Of a DNA stretch of 64,000 bases, positions 9,615 through 15,190 are shown in pieces. This DNA is from Bacilli bacterium (GTDB lineage Bacteria; Bacillota_I; Bacilli_A; RFN20; CAG-826): contig JAZQOV010000011.1 in the NCBI GenBank assembly GCA_045628045.1, positions 73,470 through 137,469 on the forward strand, written 5' to 3'. A model generated the notes under the pieces. That model did no database searches. It was not told the origin of the DNA and was given only the letters and a program-made list of their open reading frames with translations. How positions within the stretch are numbered: the stretch's first letter is position 1; the number at the start of each line of letters is the position of its first letter. A program made the translations under genes and the position numbers.

Positions 9615-9627
9615 TTTGAATTATATT

Positions 9628-9655
9628 TTGAAATTTATTTTCGCTGTGTTATATT
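9628..9655 (+). promoter_or_regulatory. SigA-type promoter, sRNA unit 1
   Basis: TTGAAA-16 nt-TATATT with extended -10 TG. Equivalent elements in unit 2 (10091-10118, TTGTAA) and unit 3 (10562-10589, TTGTTA). Confidence 0.7.
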
Positions 9656-9661
9656 ATTTGT

Positions 9662-9728
9662 GACGGGTACTGGTTTGTGCACGTAATAAAAGGATGTCAG
9701 GTTGCTGCCTGGCATCCTTTCTTCATTT
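9662..9728 (+). ncRNA. Putative antisense antitoxin sRNA 1
   Basis: Lies between the promoter and the terminator hairpin aaaggatgtcagg-ttgctg-cctggcatccttt. Its 5' part (9664-9677) is directly repeated at 9739-9752, so it is complementary to the convergent mRNA. Confidence 0.7.
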
Positions 9729-9754
9729 TAAGCAAAGGCGGGTACTGGTTTGCG

Positions 9755-9817
9755 CTAGTTGCTATTAAGCATTACGAGTAACACTAGGATAACAACTAGC
9801 ACCAGAAGGTACTCGAT
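9755..9817 (-). CDS. Putative type I toxin peptide 1 (20 aa, IEYLLVLVVILVLLVMLNSN; AUC start inferred)
   Basis: Hydrophobic frame conserved in all three units; GGAGG 9 nt upstream of ATC. Confidence 0.65.
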   Translation of the reverse strand: MEYLLVLVVILVLLVMLNSN

Positions 9818-9873
9818 AGCAAGTATCCTCCCTTCTGACCAAGCACCCGCGGTTGCCCGTAGATCTTGATCAT
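9796..9873 (-). CDS. 25-aa leader ORF 1 (MIKIYGQPRVLGQKGGYLLSSTFWC)
   Basis: GGAGG SD plus ATG; same length and stop position in all three units. Confidence 0.55.
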   Translation of the reverse strand: MIKIYGQPRVLGQKGGYLLSSTFWC

Positions 9874-9919
9874 ACCTGCCTCCATTTAAAACTATCCGAT
9901 TTTATTAATCGGCGAGCAC

Positions 9920-9954
9920 ATTATTTCACAACGTATATTCCTCTTGTCAAGAGG
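9920..9954 (-). promoter_or_regulatory. Promoter for toxin mRNA 1, with a palindrome over the -35
   Basis: TTGACA (9945-9950) with a weak -10 (TGAAAT or AATAAT); cctcttg-t-caagagg palindrome at 9940-9954. TTGACA is conserved at 10416-10421 and 10877-10882. Confidence 0.6.
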
Positions 9955-10123
9955 TCAAAAAAGTTACCTATATTAATATAGAAACTAAGATTTACTTATA
10001 ACTCTAGAACTATACTTATATTAATATTAGGTAAAAAATTTTTAATTTTTGTTTATATATTGTTTCTAGTACTGGTGAATTGTTTTTTCTTTGTAAATAG
10101 TTTTGAATGTGTTATATTATAAG

Positions 10124-10186
10124 CGATAGATACTTAGGCGCTATCAAATGAAAAGATATCAGGTTCCAGCCCGATATCTTTTTTTC
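10124..10186 (+). ncRNA. Putative antisense antitoxin sRNA 2
   Basis: Promoter upstream; 5' hairpin gatag..ctatc; terminator aaaagatatc..gatatctttttt; 10124-10137 repeated at 10197-10210. Confidence 0.7.
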
Positions 10187-10217
10187 GTTTTGAACTCGAT
10201 AGATACTTAGACGTTAG

Positions 10218-10289
10218 TTATTGCTTAGAATTATCTTGAATTATTTCAAGTAAAACAAGGACAATAACTAGCATAACCAGATACTGGAT
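10218..10289 (-). CDS. Putative toxin peptide 2 (23 aa, IQYLVMLVIVLVLLEIIQDNSKQ), frameshifted by a 13-nt insertion
   Basis: GGAGG-9 nt-ATC. Removing 10235-10247 restores a 20-aa peptide collinear with units 1 and 3. Confidence 0.55.
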   Translation of the reverse strand: MQYLVMLVIVLVLLEIIQDNSKQ

Positions 10290-10345
10290 GGCATACGCCC
10301 TCCTCTCTGACTAAGCACCCATCGAATTCTCTGGATCTTAGCCAT
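10268..10345 (-). CDS. 25-aa leader ORF 2 (MAKIQRIRWVLSQRGGRMPSSIWLC)
   Basis: GGAGGAG SD plus ATG; collinear with units 1 and 3. Confidence 0.55.
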   Translation of the reverse strand: MAKIQRIRWVLSQRGGRMPSSIWLC

Positions 10346-10594
10346 ATCTATCTCCTCCAAAACTATCCGATTCTATTAATCGGCGTGCATATTATTTCAC
10401 ACTGCATATTCCCCTTGTCAAGAGGTCAAAAAAGTTACCTATATTAATATAGAAACTAAGATTTACTTATAACTCTAGAACTATACTTATATTAATATTA
10501 GGTAAAAAATTTCTAATTTTTGTTTATGTATTGTTTCTAGTACTGGTGAATTGTTTTTTCTTTGTTAATACTTGTGAATGTGCTATATTATATT

Positions 10595-10660
10595 CGACAG
10601 GTACTTAGTAGACTAGTCAAATGAAAAGATATCAGGTTGCAGCCCGATATCTTTTTTTCA
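10595..10660 (+). ncRNA. Putative antisense antitoxin sRNA 3
   Basis: Promoter upstream; terminator aaaagatatc-aggttgcagccc-gatatctttttt; 18-nt 10598-10615 repeated exactly at 10673-10690. Confidence 0.7.
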
Positions 10661-10687
10661 TTTAGGACTCAGCAGGTACTTAGTAGA

Positions 10688-10750
10688 CTAATTATCTATC
10701 AGCATTAAAAGTAACACCAATATGATAATTAGTACAATAAGGTATTGGAT
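10688..10750 (-). CDS. Putative type I toxin peptide 3 (20 aa, IQYLIVLIIILVLLLMLIDN; AUC start inferred)
   Basis: GGAGG-9 nt-ATC; single TM-like helix. Confidence 0.65.
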   Translation of the reverse strand: MQYLIVLIIILVLLLMLIDN

Positions 10751-10806
10751 GTCATAAGACCTCCTCCCTGACTAAGCACCCTTTGAGCTCGTTGGATCTT
10801 AGCCAT
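10729..10806 (-). CDS. 25-aa leader ORF 3 (MAKIQRAQRVLSQGGGLMTSNTLLY)
   Basis: AGGAGG SD plus ATG; collinear with units 1 and 2. Confidence 0.55.
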   Translation of the reverse strand: MAKIQRAQRVLSQGGGLMTSNTLLY

Positions 10807-11089
10807 ACCTGCCTCCTGCTAAACTATCCGATTTTTAAAATCGGCGTGCATATTATTTCATAGGTTATATTCCCCTTGTCAAGAGGACTAAAAAGTTACC
10901 TTATATTAATATAACTCCATTGGATTTATTTACTAAGTAAAGATTTACTATATTAATAATAAGGTAAAAATTTAAAAAATTTGGTTCCTATTATATATTT
11001 AGTGCATAAAATCGAACTTTTTCTTTGAAAAGATTGTTTTAATGCGCTCGCTCGTGTATGATATTTATGCACATACATAGGAGAACTTA

Positions 11090-11659
11090 ATGGTTGGTAT
11101 TGTCCTTGCGGGTGGTTATTCATCCCGAGCCAAAGTTAATAAGCTCCTCCTGGAGGTAGATCGTAAACCTCTTATTCGTCATACAATTGACACTTTGAAA
11201 CCTTTCTGTAAAAAGGTTTTTGTTGTGACAGGAAAATATCATGATGAACTTAGTCAAGTTTTAGATGATGTTGAGATTGTTTGTAACAAAGATTTTGATT
11301 TAGGAATGTTTTCTAGCGTGCTTGCAGGAATTAATGCTGCTCTAGGCGAAGATGTTTTACTTATCCCAGGTGATATTTCTAATGTGGCTAAAACCACTAT
11401 TGAAGCTTTGCTTTACGGAAATAAAGACATCCGTATTCCTTCTTATGAAGGAATTACAGGACATCCTGTTTTTATTTCGAAGAAATATGTTGAACTTTTA
11501 TCTCATGAACCAGTTAGTTCCAGATTATGTGATTTTCTTAACGCGCACGAGTGTGCAAAGGAAGTTATCAGTGTAAATGACCCTTTTATCAATTTTGATA
11601 TTGATACGATTGAGGATTACAACAGATTTATTAATACAAGAAAGGAAGTTACTTTATGA
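11090..11659 (+). CDS. mocA: Molybdenum cofactor cytidylyltransferase (MocA/YgfJ family)
   Basis: VLAGGYSSR, GMFSSV, PGD, GHPV and DIDT motifs; adjacent to Mo hydroxylases. Confidence 0.85.
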   Translation: MVGIVLAGGYSSRAKVNKLLLEVDRKPLIRHTIDTLKPFCKKVFVVTGKYHDELSQVLDDVEIVCNKDFDLGMFSSVLAGINAALGEDVLLIPGDISNVAKTTIEALLYGNKDIRIPSYEGITGHPVFISKKYVELLSHEPVSSRLCDFLNAHECAKEVISVNDPFINFDIDTIEDYNRFINTRKEVTL

Positions 11660-12423
11660 AAGCAAAATCTTTCATTAGACCTTCTTCTTTAGAAGAGGCC
11701 TATAAGCTTGTTAAAGCTTCACCAAAGAACAAAATTGTCGCTGGTGGACTTTGGCTTAAAAAAGGAAACGCTGAAGCAGAAACTCTCATTGATATTTCAT
11801 CTCTTGGCCTAGACAAAATCTTAGACAAAAAAGAATACGTTGAAGTTGGCGCAATGGTTTCCCAAAGAGAACTTGAAAAATCTTCACTTGTTCCTGAAGT
11901 AATTAGAGAAGCAACTGCATTAGTTATGGGACCAGCATTCCGTAATATCGCGTCAGTTGGAGGATCAGTTTATGGAAAATATGGTTTTTCTGACATTGTC
12001 ACAGCATTACTTGTATACAAAGTAGAACTCGTTTTCTACCCAGAAGCAGTAATCACACTTGATGAATACGTCAAAAAACCTGGATTTTATGATGGAATTT
12101 TAACTCACATAAGAATTTACAAAGATAATCGCAAGGCTTTCTTTAAGAAAGTTGAAATTACTGCACTTGATTATCCAATTCTTAACGTTGCAGTTTCCGA
12201 AGGAAAAGAATGCAAAATTGTTATTGGTTCACGCCCACTTGTTGCATGCGTTTGCGAGCAAGCAAGCGCACTTGCTAGCAAAGGTGAAAAGGATTTTGAA
12301 AAGATCGCTGCTTTAGCAGTTGAAGAAACAAAATTCGGTGATTCAATCGCCACCAAAGGTGAATATAGAAAACAACTTGCACTCACTTATGTAAGACGTG
12401 GTCTTGAGGAGGTTAACAAATAA
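11656..12423 (+). CDS. Molybdenum hydroxylase FAD-binding subunit (YgfM-like)
   Basis: RPSSLEEAY, AGGLWL and FRNIASVGG motifs. Confidence 0.85.
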   Translation: MKAKSFIRPSSLEEAYKLVKASPKNKIVAGGLWLKKGNAEAETLIDISSLGLDKILDKKEYVEVGAMVSQRELEKSSLVPEVIREATALVMGPAFRNIASVGGSVYGKYGFSDIVTALLVYKVELVFYPEAVITLDEYVKKPGFYDGILTHIRIYKDNRKAFFKKVEITALDYPILNVAVSEGKECKIVIGSRPLVACVCEQASALASKGEKDFEKIAALAVEETKFGDSIATKGEYRKQLALTYVRRGLEEVNK

Positions 12424-12875
12424 TGTTAGTCAAATTCAATCTCAACGGACTTGATATCGAAGTCAATGTAAAACCAGGCGAGTATCTTTTAGATACACTT
12501 AGAGCTTATGGTGTTAAATCAGTCAAAAAAGGCTGTGATGGTTCCGCATGCGGAGTCTGTACAGTTCTTCTTGATGATAAACCAGTTTTATCTTGCTCAG
12601 TTTTAACTGCAAAAGTTGAAGGTCACAAAGTGACCACAGTTGAAGCAATTCAAGATGAAGCTGCTAAATTATCCGAATGCTTCTCTCGTGAAGGTGCAGA
12701 TCAGTGCGGCTTCTGTAATGCAGCATTCGCACTTATGGTGCACGCACTCAAAAAAGAAAATCCACATCCAACAGATGAGGAAATCAAAGATTATATGGTC
12801 GGAAACCTTTGCAGATGCACAGGTTATCAATCTCAACAAAAAGCAATTAAAGCTTATTTAGGAGGTAAGAAATAA
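12423..12875 (+). CDS. Molybdenum hydroxylase 2x[2Fe-2S] subunit
   Basis: GCDGSACGVC, QCGFC and NLCRCTGY. Confidence 0.92.
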   Translation: MLVKFNLNGLDIEVNVKPGEYLLDTLRAYGVKSVKKGCDGSACGVCTVLLDDKPVLSCSVLTAKVEGHKVTTVEAIQDEAAKLSECFSREGADQCGFCNAAFALMVHALKKENPHPTDEEIKDYMVGNLCRCTGYQSQQKAIKAYLGGKK

Positions 12876-15190
12876 TGAAAAAGAATTTCAAAGTTGTAAA
12901 CAACTTAACTCCTAGTGTTGATGGAAAAGGTCTTATGCAAGGTCGTGCTGTTTACACAGACGACATTGCTCCTCAAGGTGCTTTAATTGTTAAAATTTTA
13001 AGATCACCACATGCTTTCGCAAGAATTAAATCAATTGACGTTAGTGAAGCTGAAAAACTTCCTGGCGTTGCATGTATTTTAACCAAGGATAACGTCCCAC
13101 ACGTTTCATTTACACGTGCAGGACAAGGTTATCCTGAACCATCACCATACGATAAATTCATCTTGGATGAATATGTTCGTTATGTTGGTGATGAAGTTGC
13201 TGCAGTTGCAGCAGTTGATGAAGAAACTGCTTTAGCAGCAATGAAGCTCATCAAAGTTGATTATGAGGTTTTAAAACCAGTCCTCAACTTTGAAGAAGCT
13301 TTTGAAAACGAATCAGTTATCCACCCAGAAGATGGAATCCATGACATGTTCCCAATTGGTTTTGAACCAAAGAAGAATGTTGCAGCATCTTATGAGATGG
13401 AAGTTGGCAACGTCGAAGAAGAATTAAAGAAATCTGAAGTTGTTGTCGAAGACACATTCTATTCACAAGCACAAGCTCACGCTATGATCGAGCCACACAC
13501 TTGTAATGCACGCTTAGACGAGCACAATAGACTTGTTGTTTATTCCACAACTCAAACTCCATATCATATGCGTAGAATCATCTGCAAGACCTTAGGTCTT
13601 CCAGTTGATAGAGTTAGAGTCATTAAACCAAGAGTTGGTGGTGGCTTTGGTGGAAAACAAGCTTTCCATGGTGAAATGTTTGTCTCCCTTGTTACTTTAA
13701 GAACAAATAAACCTGCAAAATGTGTTTATACTCGTGAAGAAGTATTTGGTTGTTCTTATACGAGACACCCAATGAGAATCTCACTTAGAGTTGGTGCAAA
13801 TAAAGATGGTGTTATTAACGCAATCGATTGCCGCACTCTTTCAGATACAGGTGCTTATGGTGAACACGCTTTAACAGTCTTTATGATTGTTGGTTCTAAA
13901 GTTTTGCCACTTTATAACAAAGTTAAAGCTGTTAAATTCGGTGGAAGAGTTGTTTACACGAACCATGTATCTGCGGGCGCATATCGTGGTTATGGTGCTA
14001 TTCAAGGTAACTACGCAGTTGAATCCATCATTGATGAACTTGCGGAAAAGCTTCATATGGATCCAATTAAGCTTCGTGAAATTAACTCCATGAAGGAAAA
14101 AGAAACTTCCCCAATCTTTAAGATTATGGGTGAAGGTACCGAAGGTACAGAAATGATTATGGAAAGCTGCAAGCTTCCATATTGTATTAAACGTGGTCGT
14201 GAACTTATGGATTGGGACAAGAAATACCCAGTTAAGAAAGTTGGAGATCACAAAATTAGATCAGTTGGTTGCGCAATTGCCATGCAAGGTTCAGGAATTC
14301 CATTCTTAGATATGGGTTCTTGTACAATTAAACTTAATGATGGTGGCTCATACATGGTCACCGTTGGTGCTACTGATATTGGACAAGGCTCTGATACAGT
14401 TATTTCTCAAATTGTTGCAGAAGCTCTTCAAACAACAATGGACAAAGTCATTATCTATTCATCTGATACAGACTTAACTCCATACGATTGTGGTGCTTAC
14501 GCTTCTTCAACAACCTATGTTTCTGGTAACGCAGCATATAATGCTGCTTGCAAGATGAGAGAAAGACTTCTTAAAGAAGCTGCAGTTGAACTCAAAGTAA
14601 AACCAGATGAGGTTGAATTTGATGGAACAACATTTAAAGCTGGCAAGAAGTCAATCTCACTTGTTGATTTATCAACAGGAAGACTTTATAACAACAATAC
14701 ACATCAAATTGCTGTTACAGAATCTTATCATGGTCATGTTTCTCCACCTCCATTTATGGCAGCATTTGGAGAATTCGAATTTGACACAGAAACTTACGAA
14801 TACAAGATGATTAAGTACGTTACAGTTACTGACTGTGGTACAACAATTAACCCAGCATTGGCCAAAGGCCAAGTTGAAGGTGGTATTATCCAAGGTTATG
14901 GCATGGCTTCAAGTGAAGCGGTGCTTTATAGCTCAAATGGAAAACTACTTTCAAATACTTTTGATACTTATCACATTCCAACTGTCAAAGAAGTTGGTGA
15001 GCTTGTTACTGAATTTGCTGATTCATATGAACCAACAGGTCCATTTGGCGCAAAATCAGTTGGTGAAATTGGTATTGATACACCTCCAGCAGTACTCTGC
15101 AATGCAGTTTACAATGCTTTCGGTGTAAGAATTCATCATTTACCAATCACACCAGAAAAAATCTTTGAAACAATGAAGGCTAAAAAATAA
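12875..15190 (+). CDS. Molybdenum hydroxylase Moco-binding subunit (XdhD-like)
   Basis: GGGFGGK, AYRGYG, GQVEGG and KSVGE motifs. Confidence 0.9.
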   Translation: MKKNFKVVNNLTPSVDGKGLMQGRAVYTDDIAPQGALIVKILRSPHAFARIKSIDVSEAEKLPGVACILTKDNVPHVSFTRAGQGYPEPSPYDKFILDEYVRYVGDEVAAVAAVDEETALAAMKLIKVDYEVLKPVLNFEEAFENESVIHPEDGIHDMFPIGFEPKKNVAASYEMEVGNVEEELKKSEVVVEDTFYSQAQAHAMIEPHTCNARLDEHNRLVVYSTTQTPYHMRRIICKTLGLPVDRVRVIKPRVGGGFGGKQAFHGEMFVSLVTLRTNKPAKCVYTREEVFGCSYTRHPMRISLRVGANKDGVINAIDCRTLSDTGAYGEHALTVFMIVGSKVLPLYNKVKAVKFGGRVVYTNHVSAGAYRGYGAIQGNYAVESIIDELAEKLHMDPIKLREINSMKEKETSPIFKIMGEGTEGTEMIMESCKLPYCIKRGRELMDWDKKYPVKKVGDHKIRSVGCAIAMQGSGIPFLDMGSCTIKLNDGGSYMVTVGATDIGQGSDTVISQIVAEALQTTMDKVIIYSSDTDLTPYDCGAYASSTTYVSGNAAYNAACKMRERLLKEAAVELKVKPDEVEFDGTTFKAGKKSISLVDLSTGRLYNNNTHQIAVTESYHGHVSPPPFMAAFGEFEFDTETYEYKMIKYVTVTDCGTTINPALAKGQVEGGIIQGYGMASSEAVLYSSNGKLLSNTFDTYHIPTVKEVGELVTEFADSYEPTGPFGAKSVGEIGIDTPPAVLCNAVYNAFGVRIHHLPITPEKIFETMKAKK

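Follow-up and report, generated by a model that had tools for sequence, protein, structure and literature searches.

A candidate family of type I toxin-antitoxin modules with a leader reading frame, a 3′ repeat-type antisense RNA and a predicted two-state fold

Three tandem units of approximately 465 bp occupy the minus strand of positions 9615-11010 in the DNA analysed here, a 64,000-nucleotide (nt) stretch of a Bacilli bacterium genome (GenBank assembly GCA_045628045.1, contig JAZQOV010000011.1, positions 73,470 to 137,469 of the forward strand), which we refer to as the window. In each unit, a short open reading frame (ORF) with its own Shine-Dalgarno (SD) sequence, the leader, runs into a small hydrophobic ORF, the candidate toxin. 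The question raised by this locus is whether, as a preliminary description proposed by analogy with mok and hok, the leader must be translated for the hydrophobic ORF to be translated, and what would control this step. Our answer, to which we assign a probability of roughly 0.6, is that each repeat is a type I toxin-antitoxin (TA) module in which translation of the toxin would need translation of the leader, while two alternative folds of the mRNA 3′ tail would govern access to the leader start. The mok/hok-like licensing finds comparative and folding support in a leader start site that is present family-wide, a toxin start that is predicted to be closed, and a predicted switch that acts on the leader start. 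The hok/sok layout, in contrast, did not hold, since the predicted antisense gene is located at the 3′ end, with a tail that corresponds to the 3′ untranslated region (UTR) and not to the leader start.

Leader start site and hydrophobic reading frame

In agreement with the preliminary description, the window carries three 25-codon minus-strand leader ORFs, each preceded by a GGAG(G/A) SD sequence (SD1); they pass a second GGAGG (SD2) and stop 22 nt into the hydrophobic ORF, which lies in the +2 frame. The +22 figure is valid only if the hydrophobic ORF begins at the ATC codon discussed below. Pairwise identity among the three units is 71-85%, and they are paralogous parts of a tandem array; therefore, the agreement of their leaders does not represent three independent events. 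BLAST and two rounds of sequence profiles yielded 31 intact loci from 13 genomes, five of them in the genome of the window. Profile matches that were unrelated genes or lacked the module (L035, L036, L046 and L092), partial or antisense-only copies (L044, L079, L087 and L088), and a G008 copy with an early stop were dropped before the counts.

A strong SD sequence followed by a start codon was found 42-70 nt upstream of the toxin start in all 31 homologues (30 ATG and one GTG), with the leader ATG at an SD-compatible spacing in 30 of them. SD energies were calculated with what we take to be the anti-SD motif. Using thresholds picked afterwards, a leader-site rule (an SD sequence plus a start codon 30-90 nt upstream) at -7 kcal/mol recovered 31/31 homologues versus 29/329 control genes, i.e., genes of the same genome with long non-coding upstream DNA; at -9 kcal/mol, it recovered 24/31 homologues versus 9/329 control genes. 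A pattern scan based only on toxin codons and terminator arms gave 157 matches, 125 of which were distinct and scorable, five matches having been excluded for too little upstream DNA. The acceptance filters, which were blind to the SD sequence, the start codon and the leader, retained 17 loci, three of them already in the homologue set. The leader site was present in 16 of these 17 loci versus 27 of the 108 rejected matches, which include some true members. A later phylum-level search added three loci from one genome, and the leader site was present in all three.

The leader reading frame is 8-40 codons long among the 31 homologues. It stops 7-37 nt before the toxin start in 17 of them, overlaps the toxin in the +2 frame in eight and in the +1 frame in four, and is in frame with it in two. 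The proposal that leader length and stop position are the conserved signal was therefore not borne out, and the exact combination of 25 codons and a +22 stop, seen in only 6/31 loci, does not exceed what chance plus descent would give. At L041:1607-1720 and L034:1463-1573, where the leader is in frame with the toxin, a long form (37-38 amino acids, aa) and a short form (18-23 aa) are both possible, a two-form output as described for SprG1. When the natural 37-aa in-frame form was used to query the ESM Atlas, the best match (0.83) was to unnamed clusters, which we regard as a lead only.

A codon-position signature is strong in the toxin and absent from the leader; thus, the leader peptide is unlikely to matter, and it is likely that the peptide itself has no function. 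The conserved leader residues coincide with RNA pairing elements and with SD2. The free variation in leader length, frame and peptide sequence would also suit a ribosome standby site, in which binding of the 30S subunit at SD1 and the ATG suffices and elongation along the leader is incidental; according to the accessible part of PMC11228461, such sites are one of the routes used in type I systems. We consider this explanation unlikely because, in addition to the retained ATG spacing, no leader has a stop before codon 8 (31/31; shuffled sequences keep codons 2-8 free of stops with a probability of 0.43-0.79 per locus, and the loci are not independent), and because, in our models, the median opening energy of the toxin start increases from 14.3 to 16.4 kcal/mol when a ribosome occupies the leader start.

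In the hydrophobic ORF, identity is 0.74-0.95 at codon position 2 versus 0.21-0.63 at position 3, which indicates coding constraint. The window peptides have 20-23 aa and a GRAVY of 1.25-2.6, and the family spans 18-27 aa; judging from these sequences, the ORF likely encodes a membrane toxin. The overlap between leader and hydrophobic ORF stands as first described, although both the apparent non-canonical start codon and the predicted two-state switch of the 3′ UTR had been missed. In the window copies, the hydrophobic frame has no ATG, GTG or TTG behind SD2; it reads I-Q/E-Y-L and so on from an ATC located 9 nt after GGAGG. An (A/T)TG located 4 nt after SD2 was rejected as the toxin start, as it belongs to the leader frame. 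In the same genome, the GGAGG-to-start spacing is 7-9 nt in 109/157 cases and 4 nt in 4/157, which places the 9 nt of the toxin within the mode. At the aligned start position, 23/31 homologues have ATG, GTG or TTG, and the remaining eight have codons with one mismatch, i.e., ATC (four), ATA (two), ATT or CTG; the loci accepted in the pattern scan have a canonical start codon at this position in 17/17 cases. An in-frame stop codon lies directly before the aligned start in 8/31 loci, so the toxin ORF there cannot extend upstream. SD2 has a median energy of -16.0 kcal/mol before non-canonical starts (n=8, mostly from one clade) versus -11.7 kcal/mol before canonical ones (n=33), which is in line with the AUA and AUU starts of Staphylococcus aureus, for which the accessible part of PMC13009471 describes extended SD sequences and an output of about 10%. 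We infer that the hydrophobic ORFs of the window likely begin at AUC. In the same context, the infC gene at L297 (G000:C6) has GGAGG, an 8-nt spacing and ATA with no canonical in-frame start, and it likely uses an AUA start.

A hydrophobic frame without a canonical start, together with the two homologues that encode leader and toxin in frame, might instead indicate that in the window copies a ribosomal frameshift from the leader produces a fused protein of about 38 aa. This seems very improbable to us: the shift required varies among copies (+1 and +2), one ATA copy is directly preceded by TAG, all homologues have a start or near-start codon at the aligned position, and no slippery heptamer was seen by eye between the upstream in-frame stop and the ATC.

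As for the stop at +22, random synonymous recoding of the toxin, tested on six copies with 56-nt spacing, yielded it in 11-25% of the trials per copy. The stop is a TA(G/A) within toxin codons 7-8 (CTA-G/A), and the CTAG at this site pairs with the stop region of the toxin itself in a 12-bp helix. In an alignment of 11 related sequences, 89% of the cells of this helix are paired, seven pairs are changed on both sides, and the covariation score was matched by 0/500 shuffles. One close homologue has CTG at this site, where the pair is kept as G-U, the stop is lost, and the leader has 33 codons. Since the stop codon sits in a covarying helix, its position is most plausibly a side effect of RNA structure. 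The homologue survey, the recoding and the helix covariation led us to reject the 25-codon length or the +22 stop as a selected feature.

Predicted two-state fold and predicted antisense RNA

The mRNA regions of the three units fold far more strongly than their shuffled counterparts (z -5.1 to -6.8). The toxin start is predicted to be closed both in the nascent and in the full-length mRNA; across 41 loci, its opening energy has a median of 14.3 kcal/mol, compared with 8.7 kcal/mol at the leader start. For 30 non-redundant loci, pairing of the 3′ UTR with the candidate partners of all loci was scored; the SD1/start region of the same locus ranked first of 30 in 20/30 loci, and the leader middle of the same locus ranked first of 30 in 18/30. 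Both partner sequences differ among loci while the cognate pairing with the 3′ UTR persists. Loci G116d and G069b, in which the terminator was mis-called, were excluded from the folding and pairing sets, although G116d is still among the 30 rows of the repeat comparison given below.

Constrained folding of these alternatives gives two states. In state A, with the 3′ UTR on SD1, the leader start is shut (median of 20.1 kcal/mol to open); in state B, with the 3′ UTR on the leader middle, it is open (median of 5.0 kcal/mol). The energies of the two states differ by a median of -1.5 kcal/mol and are within 5 kcal/mol of each other in 24/30 loci. A gain of 5 kcal/mol or more over the state without UTR pairing was obtained for both folds in 26/30 real loci, compared with 0/90 shuffled-UTR and 1/30 swapped-UTR controls. 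Without the 3′ UTR pairing, the cost of opening the leader start exceeds its state B value by 2 kcal/mol or more in 24/30 loci. The toxin start is closed in both states, with medians of 12.0 (A) and 16.5 (B) kcal/mol. That the predicted switch acts on the leader start is our main, albeit indirect, reason to regard leader translation as the regulated step.

The predicted antisense gene is convergent with the toxin mRNA, is approximately 65 nt long, shares a bidirectional terminator with it and has a 5′ tail complementary to a repeat, DR1, in the mRNA 3′ UTR; its -10 box matches at least 5/6 positions in 29/30 loci. DR1, which is located at or after the toxin stop codon, and its counterpart in the antisense gene, DR2, are alike within a locus and different between loci, the cognate score being the best in 28/30. 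The antisense tail ranked its own 3′ UTR first in 27/30 loci, its own leader start in 1/30 and its own toxin start in 1/30; this ranking led us to reject an antitoxin that binds the leader or toxin start in the manner of Sok or RNA II. Each of the five antisense tails in the genome of the window prefers its own 3′ UTR. For units 1 and 2, the terminators of which are nearly identical, cross-pairing of the full antisense RNAs via this part is possible.

In the proposed mechanism, a ribosome would initiate at the leader in state B, strip the 3′ UTR helix and melt the SD2 hairpin, either by running through it, as in the window copies, or by terminating alongside it, as in 17/31 homologues, and a 30S subunit would then start the toxin. 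In the clade of the window, the weak AUC, AUA, AUU or CUG start behind an extended SD sequence would further damp the output. By pairing across the terminator, the antisense RNA would sequester DR1, with the result that state B would be lost and the leader hairpin would re-form; the long duplex between antisense RNA and mRNA is a possible substrate of RNase III, which is encoded in the genome. In our models, a terminating leader ribosome lowers the opening energy of the toxin start in 15/16 upstream-stop loci. In the window copies, opening SD2 requires a leader ribosome that runs through it, which is what the leader reading frame does.

The same elements could work in the opposite direction if the leader were an inhibitory decoy, whose ribosomes, gathered at a strong site, cover SD2 and block a weak toxin start; the antitoxin would then pull the 3′ UTR off SD1, turn the decoy on and silence the toxin. 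A reading leader does overlap all eight non-canonical toxin starts, opening the toxin start costs less in state A, when the leader is shut, than in state B (medians of 12 and 16.5), modelled antitoxin binding lowers the leader-start opening energy in 16/41 loci, and an inhibitory upstream ORF (uORF), rbfL, is described in S. aureus in the accessible part of PMC13009471. Nevertheless, we find a decoy improbable: opening the toxin start costs about 12 kcal/mol even in state A, so that it is already shut without a decoy; in two homologues, in-frame translation of the leader itself yields the hydrophobic peptide; and, in the clade of the window, modelled antitoxin binding raises the leader-start opening energy from about 6 to 11-16 in u1, u2, G017a, G017b, G008a and G008c.

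Several points weigh against leader-gated translation of the toxin under a two-state 3′ fold. Relative to the unconstrained full-length mRNA, modelled antitoxin binding raised the leader-start opening energy by at least 1 kcal/mol in 18/41 loci and lowered it in 16/41; this mixed effect indicates that allosteric shut-off is not general, and decay of the antisense duplex may, on these models, be the more general antitoxin effect. Across the family, pairing in the SD2 hairpin shows no locus specificity (the cognate partner ranked first in only 3/30 loci, with a median z of -0.3 versus shuffles), a modelled ribosome at codon 8 leaves SD2 unopened in the window copies, and a modelled terminating ribosome gave no gain in G033c. 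The 17/31 leaders that stop upstream of the toxin, some of them 21-37 nt away, are unlike mok, in which stops placed before the hok start abolish hok (accessible part of PMC9841398), and a putative uORF of timP proved dispensable (accessible part of PMC11228461). All the structures are predicted from guessed mRNA ends (leader ATG -42 to terminator +7), and states A and B were defined by forbidding pairings, which partly builds in the contrast in leader opening. Finally, relatedness among the homologues makes the counts look more independent than they are; SD1 was part of the profile searches, and the -7 kcal/mol threshold was set after the data had been seen.

Beyond the dependence of the toxin on its leader, we advance more tentatively, and with doubts that outweigh our confidence, a bistable toxin mRNA that would need no processing, in which one 3′ UTR element would serve both as lock (on the leader SD) and as key (freeing it by taking the 3′ arm of the leader hairpin), and from which the antitoxin would take this element about 120 nt downstream while touching neither ribosome-binding site, in gut Bacilli and Mollicutes-related lineages and their phages. 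If this were true, the modules would represent the first case of a type I system that is gated by a leader ORF and has a 3′ antitoxin, and the AUC, AUA, AUU and CUG toxin starts would act as an added brake. The modules form a candidate type I TA family in which a leader ORF occurs together with an antitoxin of the 3′ repeat type and a predicted two-state fold whose partners co-vary. Both the stop of distant 5′ translation by 3′-acting antitoxins and the activation of a closed toxin mRNA would become testable via paired mutations, and the natural series of leaders that end before, overlap or are in frame with the toxin, combined with canonical or AUH starts, offers a ready comparison of coupling modes.

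Organization of the units and distribution of the family

Each unit contains, in order, SD1 and an ATG leader, SD2, the hydrophobic ORF of 20-23 aa, DR1, a two-way terminator hairpin, DR2, and an opposite-strand promoter-like site, and the identical order was found in dozens of homologues. The array is flanked on one side by a membrane-protein gene with no Pfam match and on the other by a MobA-like/molybdopterin-dehydrogenase cluster. In this cluster (11090-15190), a gene for a MobA-like NTP transferase precedes those for the FAD-binding, small and large subunits of an apparent xanthine-dehydrogenase-type molybdoenzyme, the first two genes having been assigned by Pfam and the remainder by eye; the cluster is unexpected in a genome of 1.07 Mb.

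In unit 1, the candidate promoter of the toxin mRNA (10852-10882, minus strand) comprises TTGACA at 10882-10877 and TG-A-AATAAT at 10860-10852; this is a by-eye reading that the consensus scan did not call. It is followed on the same strand by the 5′ hairpin of the toxin mRNA (10828-10844), SD1 (GGAGG, 10812-10816) and the 25-codon leader MAKIQRAQRVLSQGGGLMTSNTLLY (10729-10806). The candidate toxin IQYLIVLIIILVLLLMLIDN (10688-10750, minus strand; GRAVY 2.6) has a putative AUC start 9 nt after SD2 (GGAGG, 10760-10764). In state B, the leader-middle segment (10771-10788, minus strand) is predicted to pair with the 3′ UTR, and in state A, it would form the 3′ arm of the leader hairpin; the 3′ UTR switch element (10664-10690, minus strand), which includes DR1 (10673-10690), is predicted to pair either with this segment or with SD1 and the start (10806-10817). 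The bidirectional terminator-like hairpin (10624-10655) has A/U runs on both sides. The predicted antisense RNA of about 67 nt (10596-10662, plus strand) consists of a 5′ tail formed by DR2 (10598-10615) plus the terminator, and the promoter-like site TTGTTA-16-TG-n-TATATT is located at 10562-10589 on the plus strand.

Unit 2 repeats this arrangement on the minus strand, with a candidate toxin-mRNA promoter (10391-10421), a 5′ hairpin (10367-10383), SD1 GGAGGAGA (10351-10358), the 25-codon leader MAKIQRIRWVLSQRGGRMPSSIWLC (10268-10345) and the hydrophobic ORF IQYLVMLVIVLVLLEIIQDNSKQ (10218-10289), whose putative AUC start lies 9 nt after SD2 (10299-10303). Its leader-middle segment (10311-10329, minus strand) is the predicted state B partner of the 3′ UTR, and the switch element (10187-10216, minus strand), with DR1 at 10197-10216, has 10344-10363 as its predicted state A partner. 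The bidirectional terminator-like hairpin is located at 10151-10182, and the predicted antisense RNA at 10125-10190 on the plus strand, with DR2 at 10124-10143 and a promoter-like site at 10091-10118.

Similarly, the minus strand of unit 3 has a candidate toxin-mRNA promoter (9920-9950), a 5′ hairpin (9896-9912), SD1 (GGAGG, 9879-9883), the 25-codon leader MIKIYGQPRVLGQKGGYLLSSTFWC (9796-9873) and the hydrophobic ORF IEYLLVLVVILVLLVMLNSN (9755-9817), with a putative AUC start 9 nt after SD2 (9827-9831). The leader-middle segment (9838-9858, minus strand) is the predicted state B partner of the 3′ UTR; the switch element (9725-9755, minus strand), with DR1 at 9739-9755, would pair with 9872-9892 in state A. 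The bidirectional terminator-like hairpin spans 9689-9720, and the predicted antisense RNA (9662-9728, plus strand) carries DR2 at 9664-9680, with the promoter-like site TTGAAA-16-TG-n-TATATT at 9628-9655.

Upstream of each promoter lies an AT-rich inverted repeat (10896-10967 in unit 1, where it is directly upstream of the -35 box; 10435-10505 in unit 2; 9964-10034 in unit 3), with arms of about 16-19 bp, a gap of about 31-39 nt and an end about 90 nt before the leader ATG. It is found in most copies of the same genus, including L013, L049, L052, L053, L054 and L055, where the arm sequences vary and the symmetry is kept; none was seen in the other families. It could be an operator, a cruciform or a recombination site. 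At 9941-9955 and 10412-10426, the candidate -35 box TTGACA is inside a near-perfect palindrome, CCTCTTG-A-CAAG(A/G)GG, which has an unusually long spacer to the best -10 box and is absent from the G017 and G008 copies. The sequence CCTCTTGAC, considered as an anti-SD2 element, was ruled out since it overlaps the -35 box and is absent in G017 and G008.

The family has a patchy distribution, with members in 4/37 genomes of the genus and, under strict filters, in 7/151 genomes of the order, both of which are lower bounds. The loci accepted in the pattern scan include representatives of Anaeroplasma, Acholeplasmatales, Coprobacillaceae, and uncultured Bacillales and Bacilli; further members in Thomasclavelia and in phage contigs failed the G+C or repeat filter. 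A MEYLVM start was found in 20 of the 80 viral loci fetched. Among the viral-contig copies L179, L183, L190, L193, L198, L206 and L224, the six read besides L224 have an overlapping +1 leader. The exact clade pattern gave 0 viral matches and, in metagenomes, one match within an unrelated GC-rich gene, which we attribute to chance; in blastn searches, annotated phages gave no match to a phage-borne homologue, and plasmids gave none to unit 2.

Some copies are incomplete or share a site. Extra terminator-repeat-promoter copies without a toxin ORF lie directly behind complete modules at L044 (G000:C11:62768-62897) and L087 (G033:C37:64245-64364), and are possible orphan or second antitoxin genes. 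In L003:1095-1345 (G008:C2), which is nearly identical to an intact G017 copy, the toxin frame is stopped at codon 3 and the promoter region is swapped for unrelated DNA, while the leader and the antisense gene are intact. Three diverged modules from three genomes (L013, L049 and L053) occupy one common site beside an apparent rpsF leader region, which suggests a reused insertion spot or in-place replacement of the module.

Database searches assigned the modules to no described family. In Rfam, the window had no match at the gathering score, only matches below threshold by E-value, among them RatA on the mRNA strand (24 bits versus a cut-off of 49). Pfam had no match for the hydrophobic peptides of the window; in Pfam and NCBIfam, no family matched more than one of the 24 members scanned, with no Hok-family match, and Pfam gave neither an Ibs nor an Fst match among the peptides scanned. 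In the literature searched, with partial coverage and few subscription papers, neither the module family nor a type I system combining a leader gate with a 3′ antitoxin was described. The MEYL string is absent from eight supplementary files of Fozo 2010 (PMC2887945), a weak negative because the rows seen carry GI numbers, not sequences. With ORFs of 18-27 aa, some without a canonical start, and no Pfam, NCBIfam or Rfam match, the module is easily overlooked in annotation; its hosts are reduced-genome gut lineages and gut phage contigs.

The lack of a Pfam or NCBIfam family shared by more than one of the 24 members, along with the absence of the Fst PXXXG(C) motif, would also fit a peptide that is regulated as described but acts as a small membrane regulator under antisense control rather than as a toxin. 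Multi-layer repression, specific antisense tails, tandem arrays, patchy spread, phage carriage and antisense-only copies are, however, typical of addiction modules. The multi-layer repression proposed here, the locus-specific antisense tails, the tandem arrays, the spread over 4/37 genus genomes, the occurrence on phage contigs and the antisense-only copies all follow this profile, and size and hydrophobicity match Ibs-type toxins of 19 aa (accessible part of PMC8309996). Hence, a non-toxin role appears unlikely to us, and a toxin remains the preferred assignment.

Comparison with known systems

The comparison below draws on the accessible parts of the cited sources. Two general features of type I TA systems are found in the modules, i.e., a small constrained hydrophobic ORF and a complementary antisense gene, the latter predicted. 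Tandem intergenic copies, as found here, are also a feature of Ibs/Sib. Like the peptides described here, Ibs of E. coli is an almost wholly hydrophobic peptide of about 19 aa (PMC8309996); however, Sib spans the entire ibs ORF (PMC8594479), unlike the antisense RNA predicted here, and the peptides have no Pfam Ibs match.

In bsrG/SR4 and txpA/RatA of Bacillus subtilis, as predicted here, the antitoxin pairs at the 3′ end of the toxin mRNA, and SR4 both promotes decay and tightens SD pairing from a distance (PMC3834814). Antitoxins of the SR4/RatA type overlap the toxin ORF in cis (PMC8594479), whereas here the overlap is restricted to the terminator, plus a dispersed repeat.

The par system of the Enterococcus plasmid pAD1 (Fst-RNA II) has convergent promoters and a common bidirectional terminator, as in the modules, whose toxin promoter was read by eye; in both, oppositely crossed direct repeats give the antisense RNA a second pairing region, and the toxin SD is in a local hairpin (PMC7472228). 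The par repeats cover the toxin initiation site (PMC7472228), while the target repeat of the modules is behind the toxin stop codon. Fst has the motif PXXXG(C), which is absent from our 28-member peptide alignment, and the peptides of the modules are shorter.

The closest functional likeness is to hok/Sok-mok of plasmid R1 and ldrD/RdlD-ldrX, in which a small hydrophobic ORF with a closed start follows a leader in a shifted frame, as in the modules, where the closure is predicted, and in which leader translation, not its product, is thought to matter (PMC9841398, PMC8167048). The mok start is located 19 codons before hok (PMC9841398, PMC8167048), and the leaders described here start 14-23 codons before the toxin. 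Translation of hok needs mok to be translated up to the hok SD, and not beyond, and 3′ fold-back shuts the mok SD (PMC9841398); for ldrD, ldrX plays the role of mok (PMC8167048). Fold-back of the 3′ end on the leader SD is common to hok and, as a prediction, to the modules, as reflected in the first rank of the cognate SD1 region in 20/30 loci. An overlapping leader with its own SD, as in mok, is found in the three window copies; in the family, the leader is present in 31/31 loci and reaches the toxin start in 14, a variation that may be set beside a Hok survey in which mok ORFs were hard to call (bioRxiv 10.1101/2025.08.07.668861).

Several differences from hok are evident. Hok has about 52 aa, while the peptides of the modules have 18-27 aa and no Pfam match. 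Sok and RdlD originate 5′ to the toxin ORF and target the leader initiation region, whereas the predicted antisense gene of the modules is 3′ and convergent and has a 3′ UTR target. The hok mRNA requires 3′ processing; in the modules, the 3′ end is a terminator hairpin, and one 3′ element has two predicted partners. Moreover, mok is translated up to the hok SD, and 17/31 of the present leaders stop upstream. With Hok and Fst membership both failing, these sequences suggest modules that would combine a mok/hok-like mode of working with a par-like layout.

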